Assembly: GCA_031372065.1 (NCBI GenBank)
Contig: JANMKN010000357.1
Location: 1-14,832, forward strand
Reading direction: 5' to 3'
DNA: 14,832 nt
DNA from: Abditibacteriaceae bacterium
Lineage (GTDB): Bacteria; Armatimonadota; Abditibacteriia; Abditibacteriales; Abditibacteriaceae
The position numbers were made by a program, and so were the translations under genes. Position 1 is the stretch's first letter; each line of letters starts with the position of its first letter. Under the pieces are notes generated by a model. It was not told where the DNA came from and did no database searches. It saw only the letters and a program-made list of their open reading frames with translations. Below are positions 1,761-8,818 of this stretch, in pieces.

Positions 1761-2363
1761 TTAAATGACAGTGCGGCCTGTGTTGTCATCCAAACGGTCA
1801 CCGGTAGCGGCATCAGCGATGCGCTCCATTGTGCCACGCGTGTCCTGACTGCCGGTTTCAACCGAAGTGCCACGGCCCAAATTGTAATCGGGATTGGCGG
1901 ATGTATCTATGGTATTGTGTTCGTTGCCCATGTCTTTGGTTACGTCACCGGCTTCGGCGCCTAACATTCCACCGGCTACAGCACCGGCTACAGCACCCAC
2001 CGGGCCGCCAACCACACCGCCGACTACAGCTCCAGAAAGTCCGCCCGCACCACTGCCAACAGCACGGGCGCCATCGCCATCGCGCCCCGTGTCAACGTTG
2101 ACATCATCGTGATCGTCGCCAACATGATGTGCGGCATCGCCGGCTGCCGAACCCAAAGCGCCGCCAGCCACGGCGCCGATAACGGCACCAATCGGGCCAG
2201 CCATAGCCGCGCCAATAACGCCGCCGGAAATCGCACCTGAACCGGTGCCTGCTACGCGGCCCATAGTGCCGTCGCTGTCATGCGCTCCTGCGACTTCCGA
2301 AGCCGGAACATGAACGTCGCCACCATCGGTCACTGTTGCATCATTTACACGAATTTCATCCAT
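1761..2363 (-). CDS. Acidic protein with two glycine-zipper hydrophobic hairpins (200 aa); possible general stress protein
   Basis: GGAGG at 2375-2371 lies 7 nt before ATG 2363, a better start than the track's 2453. Two homologous GxxxG-rich segments (GTGSGAISGGVIGAAMAGPIGAVIGAVAGGALGSAAGD and GSGAGGLSGAVVGGVVGGPVGAVAGAVAGGMLGAEAGD) are separated by Asp/His-rich linkers. Confidence 0.8.
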   Translation of the reverse strand: MDEIRVNDATVTDGGDVHVPASEVAGAHDSDGTMGRVAGTGSGAISGGVIGAAMAGPIGAVIGAVAGGALGSAAGDAAHHVGDDHDDVNVDTGRDGDGARAVGSGAGGLSGAVVGGVVGGPVGAVAGAVAGGMLGAEAGDVTKDMGNEHNTIDTSANPDYNLGRGTSVETGSQDTRGTMERIADAATGDRLDDNTGRTVI

Positions 2364-2434
2364 TGTTTTGCCTCCAAAATCTGGCGCTAATTTGAGTTTT
2401 TTCCACTGGGCCAGAGTTGTAAGCGCTCTTAACG

Positions 2435-2449
2435 GCAAATCGCGTTCCA
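2435..2449 (-). promoter_or_regulatory. Putative sigma-54 (-24/-12) promoter for the glycine-zipper gene
   Basis: Minus strand TGGAACGCGATTTGC versus consensus TGGCAC-N5-TTGC. GG-N10-GC spacing is exact, with one mismatch. It lies about 70 nt upstream of ATG 2363. Confidence 0.5.
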
Positions 2450-2472
2450 CCAACGCAATAACTTCAATTTAT

Positions 2473-2495
2473 TTCAACGCAACACGCGATTGTCA
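2473..2495. repeat. 23-bp direct repeat, distal copy (duplicate of the selB 3' end; att-like)
   Basis: TTCAACGCAACACGCGATTGTCA, identical to 5058-5080. The flanking bases differ on both sides. Confidence 0.95.
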
Positions 2496-2575
2496 AAGGC
2501 ACAAGGCGCGGCAATATGATAGTCTGATGATAGGTTAGGGTGGATTATTCCCTGGACATTAGCCGAGGTGTATTT

Positions 2576-5039
2576 ATGCAGCGTTTCCCTTTTTCTTCGT
2601 TTTGTCTTTTGTTGTGCAGCGTGCTGTTGGGCACGCCCTCGCAATCCGCACAGGCGGCGACGTTTACCGTTACCAACACCAATAACACTGGTGCGGGCAG
2701 CTTGCGCAAGGCACTCAACGATGCCAATGCCACGCCGGGAGCCGACAGCATCGTTTTCACGATTCCCGGCTCTGGTCTTCACACCATCGCGCCCACTTCG
2801 CCGCTGCCCACCATCACCGAGGCTGTGACCATTGATGGCTACTCGCAACCGGGCGCCACTCCCAATACGCAGACCAATAGCGACGATGCGGTTATCCTCA
2901 TCGAACTTGACGGCAGCAACGCGGGTGCGCAGGCCTACGGTCTCAAAATCACCAGCGGCAACTGCACGGTGCGCGGTTTGTGCATCAATCGCTTCAACCT
3001 GCACGGCATTCTCATGCACACGCGAGGCAACAACCTCATTACCGGCAACTTCATTGGCTGCGACCCCGGCGGCACGCTCAACCGCGACAATGGCGGGCAT
3101 GGCATCGCCATTCCCAGCGGCAACGGCAACCGCATCGGCGGCACCACGCCCGCCGAGCGCAACCTGCTATCGGGCAACCGCAACATGGGCGTGCAAATTT
3201 CCAGCAATCTGACCAGCGGCAATGCGGTGCAGGGCAACTTCATCGGCACCGATAAGAGCGGCGCGGCGGCCTTGCGCAATGGACAGAACGGTATCTACGA
3301 CCAACAACCTCATCGGCGGTATCGGCTCCGCAGCGCGCAACATCATTTCCGGCAATGAGCGGCGCGGGGTGCAGATTGCCAACGGCGCTAACGGGAATCA
3401 GGTGCAGGGCAACACCATCGGCTTGAACAGCGCGGGCTTGCAGAAAGTGGGCAACGGCAGTGATGGCGTGGCGATTACCGAGAGCAGCAACAACCTGATT
3501 GGCAGCAGTCAAGCGGGCGGAGGCAACCTGATTAGCGGCAATGGCAGCCGACTTTATGGCGGCAACGGCGTTGCTCTTAGTGGCAGTGGCGCCAGCAACA
3601 ACCGTATCGAAGGCAATCTCATTGGCACCAATGTCAATGGTGTTTTTCCTCTTAACTTTAACACGAGTAACTACATTTACGGCGTAACTATTAGCGACGG
3701 TGCTTCCAACAATATGGCGGGTGGCACAGCGAATGGGACTGGCAATTTGATTGGCGCCAATGGGAATGAGGAGTTAGCCGGCACGTCCCGGCTTTATGGG
3801 ATGGGCGTGGTGATTGAAGGTGCGGCGACAACGGGAAATCAAGTGCAGGGCAATCGCATCAAGCGCAATCAGGGCAACGGCATATGGATCAATCAGTCAG
3901 CGGGCAACCTGATTGGCGGCACCGCAGCCGGAGCGCGCAATGTCATCAGTGGCAATGCCGAATTTCCGCGTGCCGGAACTGGCAATTCTGGGATAGAAAT
4001 TTCTGGCAGTCAGGCTACCAACAATCAGGTGCAGGGCAACTACATCGGTCTGGATGAAACAGGCACTGCTACCCAAGGCAATGGTCGGGGCAGCAGCAGT
4101 GGAGGAGGCATATTTCTCAATGATGCTCCGAATAACACTATCGGCGGCACCCTCAGTGGCGCTCGCAATGTGATTTCAGGGAATGCACGAGACATCTCGA
4201 TTACCGGTTCTGCTGCGCAGAATAATCAAATTGTGGGCAATTATATTGGCACCGATGCCAGCGGCACTCAGGGTTTTGACATCGGCACAGGAGTGTTACT
4301 TGAAAATGCTGCTAACAATATCATCGGAGGCCCTTCAAGTAGTGAGAGAAACGTCATTTCTGGGAGTGGTGCAAATATTGTCTTGAGGGGTAGCGGCACA
4401 TTCGGAAATCAGATTTCAGGCAATTTTATTGGCACCCAAGCTGATGGCACAACTGCTTTGTCGAATGGACAAGGGGATACTGGAATTGGAATTTTTCAAG
4501 CTGTAAACAATCTCATCGGCGGCGCATCCGCAGGTCAAGGCAATGTAATTGCTTTTAACAACGCACAAGGAATTTTTGTTATCGAAGGAAATGGTAATGA
4601 GATTGTGGGTAACTCAATTTTCTCCAACGGGGGACTGGGTATTGATCTTGGCACTGCTGGAGTGACCGCCAATGATGGGGGCGACGCCGATACCGGCGCC
4701 AACAATCTGCAAAATTATCCGGTGCTGAGTGGGGCGAGTGTCTCTCAGGCATCGGGCACAATGACGGCCATTGACGGCACGCTCAACAGCACGGCTAACA
4801 AACTCTTTCGCGTGGATTTTTATGCCAGCCCATCGGCAGACCCCAGCGGCTTTGGCGAGGGCAAAACCTATCTGGGCCGCACTATCGTCACAACCAATGG
4901 CAGTGGGGATGTGACGTTCACCTTCGCCGCCACCGGTGATCTCAGCGGTCAGGTCATCACCGCCACGGCGACGCGCAACGATACCGGCGACACCAGCGAG
5001 TTCAGCCAAGCCGTGACCGTGGCACCAACGGGGCCGTAA
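2576..5039 (+). pseudogene. Secreted CSLREA-like / parallel beta-helix repeat surface protein (~820 aa), split by a frameshift at ~3299
   Basis: GAGGTG (2565-2570) precedes ATG 2576. Signal peptide ...SAQA, then ATFTVTNTNNTGAGSLRKAL and TIDGYSQPGATPNT. Repeated GNFIGT..., NNxIGG...RNVISGN units and a C-terminal NSIFSNGGLGIDL...NNLQNYPVL...GEGKTYLG...DTSEFS. The repeat pattern is in the frame of ORF 2540..3358 up to NGQNGIY (3298) and continues in the frame of ORF 3222..5039 from TNNLIGG (3300). Confidence 0.85.
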
Positions 5040-5057
5040 AAGTGTTTTTCGCGCGAC

Positions 5058-5080
5058 TTCAACGCAACACGCGATTGTCA
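5058..5080. repeat. 23-bp direct repeat, proximal copy overlapping the selB stop
   Basis: TTCAACGCAACACGCGATTGTCA. On the minus strand it encodes DNRVLR-TGA of SelB. Confidence 0.95.
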
Positions 5081-7002
5081 GCGGCGCGGCGCGTTAGACC
5101 GATGCGATCATAATATTCCAAAAGCGGCACCAGCCATTTGCGGGTTGTGTTCAATAAATCGCGTGCCCCGCTGATGGAAAGCGTGCCGTTTTTTTGCAAA
5201 TGTGCCTTCAGAATCTGCGCGCCTTCTTCAAGGCGCTGACGGCTAAAAACGAAATCGTCGGCGCGCACCAATTTGTTTTCTTTTATTAAGCTGAAGCACA
5301 ATTTTTTAGCGAGGTCGCGCTGCGCCGCCGCGCATCCTCCCACTAATTCATCCAGCGTCTGCGCTTGCCATGCTGCGTCATGCGCCGCCTTCAGCAGTTG
5401 GTTTTTTAAGCGCGTTTCGTCTTCGCTCAAAGTCACGCGATGCAGCGCCAAACGCACACCGGCAGGCTCCAACGCGATAGTTCCGGCACGGCTCAGGTCT
5501 ATTAATAAAGCGTCGAAAGCGTGCTGCGACAAGGAGGGAGGCAACGCGGCGCGCAAGGCTTCGCGGGATAAGGCAGGCGATAGCGGTTCGTCTTTATGAA
5601 ACACGGATAACGTTTGGGTAATCGTCTTTTTTAGTGTGGCAACTGTGTTCGCGTGCAGCAAAATTTCCTCACCGCTTTCGGGTGTGCCACGCCATAAAAT
5701 GCCGCCTTTTTCAAGGGTAGTCAGAATGGTCGTTACATCCGCCAAATGCAGTTCCACTTGCAATTGTGCTTCGCTCAAACCGGCGACATCCGCACGGCGC
5801 AAAAGGATTTCAGAAAGGGACGCGACATCGTCTTTTTCCAAGGCATCCTGCAAAAGAGGCAGCCAGTGCGCCGCTTGCGCGCGTGAGCCATCGGTTGCCA
5901 AATCTAAAATCATGCCGCCGCCGATAACGCGTTCGGTGCCGACTTCGCGCAACACAAAACGATCACGGCGCGCACAGGCCAAGGGCGAAGCAAAGCGCAA
6001 GCGCGCCATGCCCTTTTCGCCCGCCAAAAGGCGCGCTGCTTCGAACAAATGCACGCGCGCTTCCAGTTCGGTGGTGCCGAGGTGAAAGCGTAGCGGCGCT
6101 TTGTCTTTCAACGGGCACGGCGCGTCCGGCACGAGGCGCATCCACACATCAATTTGCGTCACAGCGCGCAAGGTTTTGGGCGCCGCCAAAGTGCCGCCGC
6201 GCGTCGCATCATCCAAATCCACACCCGCCAAATTCACCGCTGTGCGCTGTCCACGCGCCACGCTGGGCGCCGCTTCGCCATGCACTTCCAAGGTGCGCAC
6301 GCGCGCCGTTAAAGCGCGCTCGCTGCCCGGCTGCCACACTTCGACGGTTTCGCCGACAGAAAGCACGCCCTGCGCCGCTGAACCCGTAACCACGGTGCCA
6401 AAACCGCTGATGCTAAAAGCGCGGTCTATCGCCATTCTAAAAGGATGCAGGCGAAAGGATGAGGGCTGAGACGTTTCGAGACGATGGCAGATTTTTGCTA
6501 ATTCGGTTTTTAGCTCGTCCAAACCGGCGCCAGATAGGGCAGAGACTTCCAGCAGCGGCGCGTTGCCGAACATCGTGCCGCTTAATTTGTCGCCGATTTC
6601 GAGGCGCACCAGTTCGAGCCATTCTTTTTCGACGGCGTCGCACTTGGTTAAAACCACAATGCCCGCGCGAATTTGCAGCAGTTCTAAAATGCGCAAGTGT
6701 TCCGTTGTTTGGGGCATCACGCCTTCATCGGCGGCGATCACCAAAAGCGCGATGTCCACGCCCGTTACACCCGACAACATATTTTTGAGAAAGCGCTCGT
6801 GCCCCGGCACATCCACGATGCCCGTGACCCGTTCGGGCACGTTTTTCACGGCGGGCAAAGTCAGGTGCGCAAAGCCCGGCACGATAGAAAGGCCGCGCTC
6901 TTTTTCTTCGCGCAAACGGTCGGTTTCGATGCCCGTCAAAGCGCGAATCAGCGTCGTTTTGCCATGATCTACATGGCCCGCCGTGCCAATAATGAAGTGC
7001 AT
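5059..7002 (-). CDS. selB: Selenocysteine-specific translation elongation factor SelB
   Basis: IIGTAGHVDHGKT (G1), DRLREEKERGLSI, DVPGHERFLKNMLSG (G3), AADEGVMPQTTEH, TKCD (G4), IDRAFSISGFGTVVTGS and RGQRTAVNL. C-terminal winged-helix SECIS-binding end TRKWLVPLLEYYD. 647 aa. Confidence 0.98.
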   Translation of the reverse strand: MHFIIGTAGHVDHGKTTLIRALTGIETDRLREEKERGLSIVPGFAHLTLPAVKNVPERVTGIVDVPGHERFLKNMLSGVTGVDIALLVIAADEGVMPQTTEHLRILELLQIRAGIVVLTKCDAVEKEWLELVRLEIGDKLSGTMFGNAPLLEVSALSGAGLDELKTELAKICHRLETSQPSSFRLHPFRMAIDRAFSISGFGTVVTGSAAQGVLSVGETVEVWQPGSERALTARVRTLEVHGEAAPSVARGQRTAVNLAGVDLDDATRGGTLAAPKTLRAVTQIDVWMRLVPDAPCPLKDKAPLRFHLGTTELEARVHLFEAARLLAGEKGMARLRFASPLACARRDRFVLREVGTERVIGGGMILDLATDGSRAQAAHWLPLLQDALEKDDVASLSEILLRRADVAGLSEAQLQVELHLADVTTILTTLEKGGILWRGTPESGEEILLHANTVATLKKTITQTLSVFHKDEPLSPALSREALRAALPPSLSQHAFDALLIDLSRAGTIALEPAGVRLALHRVTLSEDETRLKNQLLKAAHDAAWQAQTLDELVGGCAAAQRDLAKKLCFSLIKENKLVRADDFVFSRQRLEEGAQILKAHLQKNGTLSISGARDLLNTTRKWLVPLLEYYDRIGLTRRAADNRVLR

Positions 7003-7006
7003 TTCT

Positions 7007-7091
7007 TTAGCTTTGAGCGGTGAGCATTTAGCTGTTAGCCATTCAGTGCGAAGAGGTAGCTAACAGCTAAATGCTCATAGCTAACCGCTTA
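7007..7091. repeat. Inverted array of 5+5 heptamers (T[T/G/A]AGCNN) forming a hairpin with a 19-bp perfect stem
   Basis: Left arm TTAGCTT TGAGCGG TGAGCAT TTAGCTG TTAGCCA (7007-7041); right arm TAGCTAA CAGCTAA ATGCTCA TAGCTAA CCGCTTA (7057-7091). 7021-7039 is the exact reverse complement of 7059-7077, with a 19-nt loop. Confidence 0.9.
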
Positions 7092-7818
7092 TCAAAACCG
7101 CATCGGGCACAGCGCGGCCAGAGCGCAGGTGCAAGCGACGCGAAGGGGTTTGCAACGACAGTTGTGAGGACGGGCCACCATCAAGATTGAGCGCGTCGCG
7201 GCAATTTAATCCAGCGGGCGCGGCCCAGAATTTGGCCCATTCGGGCAGCGACACATCGCTATCGGCGACGGCGATGACGACTTTTCCATCACGTTGAATG
7301 CCCATTCCGGTGCGCCGCGCCCATTGGAATTTCAGTTTCAAAACTTTGCCGTTTTCCACCAAGCGTGGGCCGCATTGCACGGCTTCGCGCATATCGCTTT
7401 TCCACACGAATTTTTCCGTCGGCATAATTTGCGCCTGCGGATGGCTTTTGCTGCCACGCGTAAAAAATACGCCCCACATTTTTCCGTGCAGAACACTTAA
7501 TCGCTTGCCGCCGGAGGCACGCAGGCCAAGCGGTTTGTCCTGCGCATCAAAAAAGCCGCCGTTGACCGCCGCCAGCGCTTTGTTTGCTTTGCGCCACTCT
7601 TCGGCTTGGCGCGGTGTGCCCGAAACCACGCGCAAATGCTCTGGCGTGGTGCGCAAAGCAACAACAGAACTCGAATTATTGCTGCCCGGTGCGCGCAACA
7701 AGCGCAGTTCAACGCCCGGCGCAATAGTGGCCCAAACATCTTCGCCGGGCGAGCGCCAATGATGCCGCCCCCACGCCAGCGCGCCGAACAAAAAAACCAG
7801 CAAAAACCAATATCGCAT
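7081..7818 (-). CDS. Phosphodiester glycosidase (NAGPA / DUF2233 family), exported or membrane-anchored
   Basis: Motifs AAVNGGFF, AVQCGPRLV, ARRTGMGI, ALNLDGGPSSQL. Hydrophobic N-terminus MRYWFLLVFLFGALAW from ATG 7818 (alternative GTG 7842). Confidence 0.9.
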   Translation of the reverse strand: MRYWFLLVFLFGALAWGRHHWRSPGEDVWATIAPGVELRLLRAPGSNNSSSVVALRTTPEHLRVVSGTPRQAEEWRKANKALAAVNGGFFDAQDKPLGLRASGGKRLSVLHGKMWGVFFTRGSKSHPQAQIMPTEKFVWKSDMREAVQCGPRLVENGKVLKLKFQWARRTGMGIQRDGKVVIAVADSDVSLPEWAKFWAAPAGLNCRDALNLDGGPSSQLSLQTPSRRLHLRSGRAVPDAVLISG

Positions 7819-7857
7819 GAGTGAAACGCAATTCCGGCGCACCTTGGCGCCGCTTTG

Positions 7858-7866
7858 ATTTTAGCA
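7858..7866 (-). promoter_or_regulatory. Putative extended -10 element for the NAGPA-selB transcript
   Basis: Minus strand TGcTAAAAT in the short divergent intergenic region. No convincing -35. Confidence 0.4.
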
Positions 7867-7921
7867 GGATACGGGCAACTCACACACGGCTCTGGACAAT
7901 TGCCGCCGCACAAAGCAGAAT

Positions 7922-8761
7922 ATGAACGTGACCCCTAATTCCTTGAACTATCGCCTGACGGAAGACGAAAAACAGACTTTTAACACAACTGGAATTTTGC
8001 AAATCGAAAACGTGCTGTCCGATACGCAAATCGAAGCCTTGACCAACGCCACAGATCGCATTTTTAATGAGAAAATCGCGGGCGGGCACGCGCCGGATCA
8101 GGCATTGTTTTATCCGAATTTCATCCCCGACGACGACCTGTTTTTCGATCTTGTGGATTACGAACGGGTGCTGCCCAAAGTGTGGGGCATTTTGGGTTGG
8201 AACATTTATTTGTATCACGCTCATCTCATCGTCACGCCGCCGAGCGGACAAGAGAAATCGGACAAAACGTTCGGGTGGCATCAGGATTCAGGGCGCGTTA
8301 ATCAGGAAATCGAGTGTCATCCGCGCCCGCGATTATCGCTCAAAGTCGCTTATTTTCTCTCCGACACCTCCGAAGCGGGGCGCGGCAATTTTTGGGTCAT
8401 TCCCGGCAGCCATTTGTGGGACAGTTTGGAGCGTCCCGCCGACGGTATCGGCCAGCCAGAGAGTGCGGTTCCGGTTTTAGCCAAGCCCGGCACGGCGGTT
8501 TTATTTGATCGCCGCTTATGGCACACCGCCAGCCCGAATTGGTCGGATGTCACACGAAAAATTCTCTTTTACGGCTACGGTTATCGGTGGATTCGCACCA
8601 AAGACGACATGACGGTGCAATCGCTGTGGGACAAATGCGACCCGATTCGCCGCCAGATGCTCGGCTACGGCGTCAACTGCAACGGCCACTTTTCGCCCAC
8701 CGACGAAGATGTGCCCCTGCGTGTCTTTTTGCGCGAACATTCGCCAGAGGAAGCGAAGTAA
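7922..8761 (+). CDS. Phytanoyl-CoA dioxygenase (PhyH) family Fe(II)/2-oxoglutarate dioxygenase
   Basis: N-terminal LTEDEKQTFNTTGILQIENVLS, HxD motif in FGWHQDSG, GNFWVIPGSHL, AKPGTAVLFDRRLWHTASPN, and the conserved Arg in VTRK. Confidence 0.92.
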   Translation: MNVTPNSLNYRLTEDEKQTFNTTGILQIENVLSDTQIEALTNATDRIFNEKIAGGHAPDQALFYPNFIPDDDLFFDLVDYERVLPKVWGILGWNIYLYHAHLIVTPPSGQEKSDKTFGWHQDSGRVNQEIECHPRPRLSLKVAYFLSDTSEAGRGNFWVIPGSHLWDSLERPADGIGQPESAVPVLAKPGTAVLFDRRLWHTASPNWSDVTRKILFYGYGYRWIRTKDDMTVQSLWDKCDPIRRQMLGYGVNCNGHFSPTDEDVPLRVFLREHSPEEAK

Positions 8762-8818
8762 AACCTTTGAATCAGCAGATTTGCGCGAAACTATTTTAAA
8801 GCCAACTTGCTGCCTATA

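Follow-up and report, generated by a model that had tools for sequence, protein, structure and literature searches.

A 2.56-kb insertion between two copies of the selB 3′ end, and a genome-wide class of gene-end scars in an Abditibacteriaceae bacterium

The window analysed here, a 14,832-nt stretch of contig C44 of an Abditibacteriaceae assembly (G000), carries a beta-helix gene lodged directly behind selB. The features of this locus are as follows, each with its window coordinates, strand and content and, in brackets, the basis of the call.

1761–2363, minus strand: glycine-zipper gene, the ancestral downstream neighbour of selB (gene call; weak Pfam glycine-zipper matches below cut-off; orthologues after selB in G001, G002 and G003)
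2435–2449, minus strand: GGAAC-N4/5-ATTTGC motif of the ancestral selB/glycine-zipper spacer (conserved in G000, G001, G002 and G003)
2473–2495, minus strand: displaced copy of the selB 3′ end, reading DNRVLR-stop plus 1 nt (sequence comparison)
2496–2575, plus strand: cargo leader of 80 bp with an RBS-like GAGGTG at 2565–2570 and no homology to the leader of the C338 paralogue (alignment)
2576–5039, plus strand: cargo pseudogene for a predicted secreted right-handed beta-helix repeat protein (Pfam NosD, alignment with the C338 paralogue)
5040–5057, no strand: 18-bp spacer between the convergent stops of cargo and selB (sequence)
5058–5080, minus strand: functional selB 3′ end, the second repeat copy (sequence repeat search)
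5059–7002, minus strand: selB, selenocysteine-specific elongation factor of 647 aa, intact (TIGR00475, 346 bits versus a cut-off of 242; Pfam)

The sequence TTCAACGCAACACGCGATTGTCA is identical at 2473–2495 and 5058–5080, and the right copy consists of the final 22 nt of selB plus 1 base. This confirms the perfect 23-bp duplication reported in a preliminary description of this DNA, which had also stated that selB is left intact and that the insert encodes no recombinase; both statements hold. Within the 6.14-Mb, 410-contig assembly these two copies are the only ones, even when 4 mismatches are allowed. We therefore rejected the idea, raised in the same description, that the 23-mer is a common dispersed repeat. 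Gene-internal control windows gave 0/3704 hits at the same threshold, and the selB duplication is thus beyond chance. There is no tRNA gene within the window to serve as a target, and selC lies on contig C287. A hybrid promoter combining TTGTCA of the left repeat with TATGAT at a distance of 19 bp is not claimed: its spacing is off and it is absent from the consensus scan list. Among the data sets listed as containing the sequence there was none of RNA.

Misassembly at the repeat was rejected because each copy is bridged by contigs with more than 31 letters on either side. The left copy is covered by a contig of run X1 (2350–2618) and the right copy by contigs of X1 (4721–5325) and X2 (4847–5249). 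Runs X1–X4 all stem from a single study, the window itself may derive from X1, and among the matches listed no contig spans both junctions. Run X4 contains a selB end that is 90% alike, with unrelated sequence after it; this comes from another organism and is uninformative. The empty site that the preliminary description expected in relatives was found in 3/3 same-genus genomes (G001, G002 and G003), in which selB directly adjoins the glycine-zipper gene. The conserved spacer motif lies just beyond the left copy, which places the former selB end at that copy. The motif precedes the glycine-zipper gene, and its GG-N10-GC spacing resembles that of a sigma-54 promoter. The 2.56-kb segment was inserted here, has a copy of the selB end on either side and leaves selB whole.

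The cargo frame that starts at ATG 2576 stops at 3358 after 260 aa (stop codon 3356–3358), and the remainder lies in another frame. The shift is caused by a 14-bp deletion at 3297/3298, as judged against an intact 831-aa paralogue on contig C338 (2583–5078). The same deletion is present in one X3 contig (3166–3520) that aligns with no gaps and no differing letters. The insert had been described as exactly one gene with its own RBS. The RBS-like GAGGTG, the antiparallel orientation to both neighbours and the 18 bp between the TAA (5039) and the right copy all stand, but the gene is frameshifted and not a single intact one. The proposal of a minimal excisable surface-protein cassette is not supported, the cargo being a pseudogene. 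Among 15 of 18 joints, in assembled contigs that drop rare forms, neither a circle nor an empty-site form was found.

Cargo and C338 paralogue share 81–85% nucleotide identity, with homology running from 5 nt before the ATG to the stop codon. Their similarity is a mosaic, about 40–97% per 100 columns, so the cargo is not a fresh copy of this paralogue. Pfam NosD matches the cargo above cut-off (30.3 bits) and Beta_helix below it, and ESM Atlas matches to the intact paralogue at 0.96–0.98 carry Beta_helix/NosD. The N-terminus looks like a signal peptide by eye. AlphaFold run on the intact paralogue with no alignment gave a pLDDT of 32, and searches of PDB and NCBIfam with the beta-helix protein gave no match. 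Homologues of the cargo occur at 79 loci, at 34–50% identity and in records of many phyla; the best match in three congeners reaches 54%. On C338 the intact paralogue sits in a 6.9-kb block (1945–8799, L075) that is absent from G002, with a degenerate ~30-bp repeat near 1940 and 7250 and a decayed gene fragment ahead of the paralogue. Two giant ORFs, C228:52632–67496 (4954 aa) and C287:2746–9507 (2253 aa), consist of tandem copies of the cargo's beta-helix unit.

A scan for exact repeats first revealed that other short inserts in this genome also lie between copies of a gene terminus. Gene calling by a hexamer model gave 5068 genes, of which the 3704 that were complete and no shorter than 450 nt were tested at a score of at least 20 and a length of at most 130 bp, leaving out in-frame copies inside paralogues. 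A downstream copy of the gene's own last 40 nt was found for 22/3704 genes; the same window searched upstream gave 2, and four internal windows gave 0, 0, 0 and 0. The genome search for gene-end duplications suggested in the preliminary description thus yielded many. Counted by distance from the stop in 40-nt steps, hits fall off as 24, 15, 9, 7, 3, 0, 1, 1, 0 and 1. A mirror form at gene starts was found 5 times upstream versus once downstream. Mirror scars at C305:11177–12464, C407:7394–8332, C393, C58 and C172 have the gene start, some with its RBS, duplicated upstream of the insert. With the length cap lifted the counts rise to 24 for the 3′ form and 7 for the 5′ form, the two 3′ additions measuring 146 and 216 bp.

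The displaced copies of the 22 scars are 20–90 bp long (median 38), and 15/22 exceed 30 bp. Among the host genes are those for a NuoI-like 4Fe-4S protein, an RluD-like pseudouridine synthase, an acetyltransferase, a prolyl oligopeptidase and proteins with DUF1501, DUF1552 and DUF444. The 31 inserts range from 147 to 8156 bp, with a median GC of 0.50 versus 0.53 for the genome. Most cargoes comprise a gene or two with no Pfam family (based on 63 proteins from 20 of the loci); others encode WD40, ankyrin, DUF1559, Imm5 and, on C118, one IS200-like transposase. No restriction-modification family was found among the sister cargoes scanned. The 22 scars are a mixed set in which every row was kept, including two without an ORF (C94 and C286), the C118 transposase and a toxin-immunity-array-like locus (C368). 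Twenty of the scars contain an ORF by crude ORF calls, and in 11/20 no more than about 30 nt separate the end of the last ORF from the displaced copy. Random breakage would be expected to pack them less tightly, and the packing fits recycled cassettes. At C67:15334–16890 (L059:1455–3045), four variant copies of the last 12–21 codons of a DUF1552 gene are separated by one short ORF each; this array is sequential gene accretion behind one gene end.

The paired copies at these scars differ in the manner of two coding alleles. Their 69 mismatches fall 47:17:5 at codon positions 3, 1 and 2, and the position-2 share lies below the 25% expected for decay after exact duplication (P = 1.4e-4). Changed codons are synonymous in 45 cases and not in 15. 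The stop is kept at the same codon in 19/22 displaced copies, often as a different stop codon, and lies within two codons in 22/22. Third-position mismatches and retained stops indicate that both copies were once working gene ends. At the NuoI-like gene, the sequence past the displaced copy resembles, by eye, the G001 sequence after the stop. The two copies at selB are identical, so for this site the two-allele argument is borrowed from the sister scars.

We think it rather probable that the selB insert is trimmed, circularised donor DNA that integrated through one short-homology crossover, with no site-specific recombinase involved. The incoming DNA would have come from a relative and carried the last codons of a related selB with a neighbouring beta-helix gene. 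This fragment would have been trimmed and ligated into a circle, and one crossover within the short homology would then integrate the circle. The product would be a complete selB followed by the cargo and, 2.6 kb downstream, the old end. The 14-bp deletion came later and broke the cargo. Two survival filters may explain why short gene-end scars accumulate: only fragments holding a terminus would leave the host gene whole, and short duplications would be expected to pop out rarely. We infer the donor, the circle, the RecA dependence and both filters. The genome encodes recA, comEC and dprA. Against this reading, no Ku gene was found in 4/4 genomes of the genus. A donor arrangement with a beta-helix gene beside selB was found at 0/21 other selB loci, and cargo followed by a displaced selB end likewise at 0/21 (0.7–11.9 kb downstream examined; the stop may be misplaced in a few). 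One of the 21, L308 of G030, carries a tandem duplication of 138 bp, made up of the selB end and downstream DNA, with no cargo. The homology of 23 bp also counts against the crossover, being near the lower limit for RecA.

The closest experimental parallel is in Escherichia coli, where partly degraded linear DNA was ligated and integrated by a recA-dependent single crossover (Amarir-Bouhram et al, 2011; PMC3240628). Duplications were found there in 56/60 clones, measuring 109–950 bp where sequenced, and the circle route was 10 times commoner than homology-facilitated illegitimate recombination (HFIR). Single-crossover insertion-duplication shares with our class the lack of an integrase and a duplicated homologous segment of variable length with foreign DNA between the copies; our duplications of 20–216 bp, which have no shared motif, are of the same variable-length, non-sequence-specific kind. 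It differs in being a laboratory plasmid system with duplications of 109–950 bp, whereas the scars described here are natural, 20–216 bp long, placed at gene termini and marked by cross-allele differences. The 23 bp at selB are far below the length range in E. coli.

The second precedent is insertion with long target duplication, which is defined by restriction-modification cargo and repeats above 30 bp and is attributed to double-strand breakage (Furuta, Abe and Kobayashi, 2010; PMC2853133). Its cases are short inserts that lack a mobility gene, are flanked by a direct repeat found nowhere else and correspond to an empty site in a relative; two 46-bp Haemophilus cases overlap gene 3′ ends. 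The selB insert likewise is shorter than 20 kb, lacks a mobility gene and has a unique repeat and an empty site. It differs in its beta-helix cargo and 23-bp repeat, and its sister repeats follow the codons of gene ends up to the stop. We do not file it as a long target duplication because the repeat does not exceed 30 bp and the cargo is not a restriction-modification system; the supplements of PMC2853133 may list similar cases. Given these two precedents for the architecture (PMC2853133, PMC3240628), the earlier suggestion of an undescribed system is not supported. A literature search covering main texts only, and few subscription papers, returned no genome-wide account of the gene-end class and no report of selB as an integration site. 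The category that suits the selB insert best is single-crossover insertion-duplication, as a natural instance of it.

A different, unlikely reading is that the insert is a portable cassette anchored at gene ends. It would excise between the repeats, or move as linear DNA anchored by the displaced end, and re-integrate at the same gene end elsewhere, refreshing both copies, possibly with a dedicated annealing or recombination factor. Cargo is packed tightly against the displaced copy in about half of the scars, as this would predict, and in the C67 DUF1552 array each of the four copies is another variant, with TAA or TGA as its stop. The same phosphoesterase gene end is targeted in both G000 and G002, where the cargoes are related and the displaced stretches differ. 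Against this, the cargo at selB is dead, the 15 of 18 joints gave no circle or empty-site form in contigs that drop rare forms, and a bracketed beta-helix gene was the cargo at 0 of the 79 cargo-homologue loci scanned. There is a small chance that the genus runs an undescribed integrase-free cassette system in which the last 7–30 codons of any host gene act as a portable attachment site; cargo and gene end would excise as small circles, which enter further strains at that gene end and give rise to arrays like the one on C67. The selB insert would then be a dead representative of a set of at least two dozen in the genome.

We consider it improbable that the end was duplicated by HFIR of linear transforming DNA, with selB as a long anchor and an illegitimate joint 23 bp before the host stop. 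HFIR would give the same product and the same two-allele pattern, and comEC and dprA are present. It has also been invoked, in Vibrio, for displaced 3′ ends at T6SS effector and rhs loci (Kirchberger et al, 2017; PMC5361080). In those cases the old 3′ end is pushed aside by a new one that arrives with a downstream gene, and repeated events give arrays like that on C67; the end that is replaced there encodes a different toxin domain and is under selection, whereas here the ends are near-identical and belong to housekeeping or ordinary genes (selB, NuoI-like, RluD-like, DUF1501/1552). In PMC3240628, however, HFIR is predicted to delete target DNA, and the duplications, in 56/60 clones, came from circles. 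An 8-nt GC-rich match just past the core would suit an illegitimate joint, but it is weak because about 2% of random 25-mers have one, and for the same reason we do not claim it as an extension of the repeat.

The preliminary description had read the repeats as attL and attR of a tyrosine or serine recombinase acting in trans at selB, or the segment as the trimmed remnant of a larger island, which we now find very improbable. Integrase-driven islands reconstitute the 3′ end of the tRNA or protein-coding gene that they target. They share with the selB insert a gene-restoring direct repeat, here a perfect one, and the genome encodes 11 tyrosine and 4 serine recombinase domain matches. None of these is on C44, however, and only 1/31 inserts shares a contig with a recombinase gene, at a distance of 10 kb. 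Unlike such islands, the class has no integrase in cis, no common core, varying repeat lengths and about two dozen unrelated targets in a single genome. No 5–7-mer is shared among the 22 cores beyond the null. The 23-mer folds into a small hairpin (−3.9 kcal/mol), but 12% of ordinary gene ends fold as well as the last 30 nt of selB, and the 22 cores show no hairpin excess over other gene ends (P = 0.78). Repeats of 20–90 bp at unrelated hosts, their synonymous differences and the lack of such a scar at the 21 other selB loci all speak against selB as an attachment site, and the literature co-mention of selB and attB proved to be a match to an author's name. An island remnant would presuppose precise trimming on either side, repeated many times, as the non-coding DNA amounts to only 80 + 18 bp.

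An integron gene cassette would carry attC behind its ORF; here only 18 bp follow the cargo stop. No attC was found in the 31 inserts, and the attC-like repeats of the genome amount to 29 hits on 8 contigs. Arrays of attC-like palindromic repeats lie on C2 near 28300, at C109:150–2050 and on C351, where an integron is possible, as a tyrosine recombinase gene is present there too. In G003 one attC-like repeat (L294:2200–2290) directly follows the gene behind which G000 has the C338 block. C183 holds two tyrosine and one serine recombinase genes, tRNA-Pro, cas1 and CRISPR-like repeats, and C272 has a cluster of eight tRNA genes.

That a staggered cut by a transposase, a casposase or break repair inserted a copy of the C338 paralogue with target-site duplication seems highly improbable: identical copies at selB and a close paralogue homologous from 5 nt before the ATG to the stop would fit, but the insert has no terminal inverted repeats (the longest inner-end match is 5 nt, equal to the null mode) and no transposase or casposase gene by Pfam, the sole cas1 of the genome adjoins a CRISPR-like repeat on C183, the paralogues are mosaic, and the synonymous differences at sister scars are left unexplained. 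Inverted ends were seen in only one insert (C286, no ORF).

Scars of this kind also occur outside G000. For relatives we scanned samples of 0.4–0.8 Mb, not whole genomes. The G002 sample gave 4/535 genes, of which 2 were accepted (the rejects were a paralogue in a frameshifted gene and a dispersed-repeat-like case), and the G003 sample gave 1/316 genes, which was accepted, plus two 5′ hits, of which 1 was accepted; the samples of G005 (0/251) and G012 (0/228) gave none. The 79 cargo-homologue loci, with 245 genes, yielded 4 raw hits, and 1 was accepted (L186, a Verrucomicrobia record). A metagenome scan with the SelB C-terminus returned 4 distant loci only, and there was no E. coli DNA match.

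Taken alone, the selB insert is a scar with a dead passenger; what makes it useful is that it marks a route of gene gain whose events can be counted. In about 0.6% of the genes of this genome, the end has been exchanged for that of another allele and one or two accessory genes have been added behind it, with no mobile element. This route escapes island finders that need an integrase or a tRNA. A simple scan, for a gene end repeated downstream with synonymous mismatches, measures it in any genome, and this measurable genome-wide scar class is the part worth following. If the cassettes can be re-mobilised, they would be a general, sequence-independent counterpart to integrons.

The SelB C-terminus was detected in 5/27 genomes of the family (E ≤ 1e-20; in G010 selB is cut by the contig end), so selenocysteine decoding looks patchy in this family. 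Elsewhere in the window, 38-nt inverted arms (79% complementary) lie between a NAGPA-like gene and the selB start at 7002–7096, and a perfect 17-bp hairpin at 1712–1746 is probably a two-way terminator.
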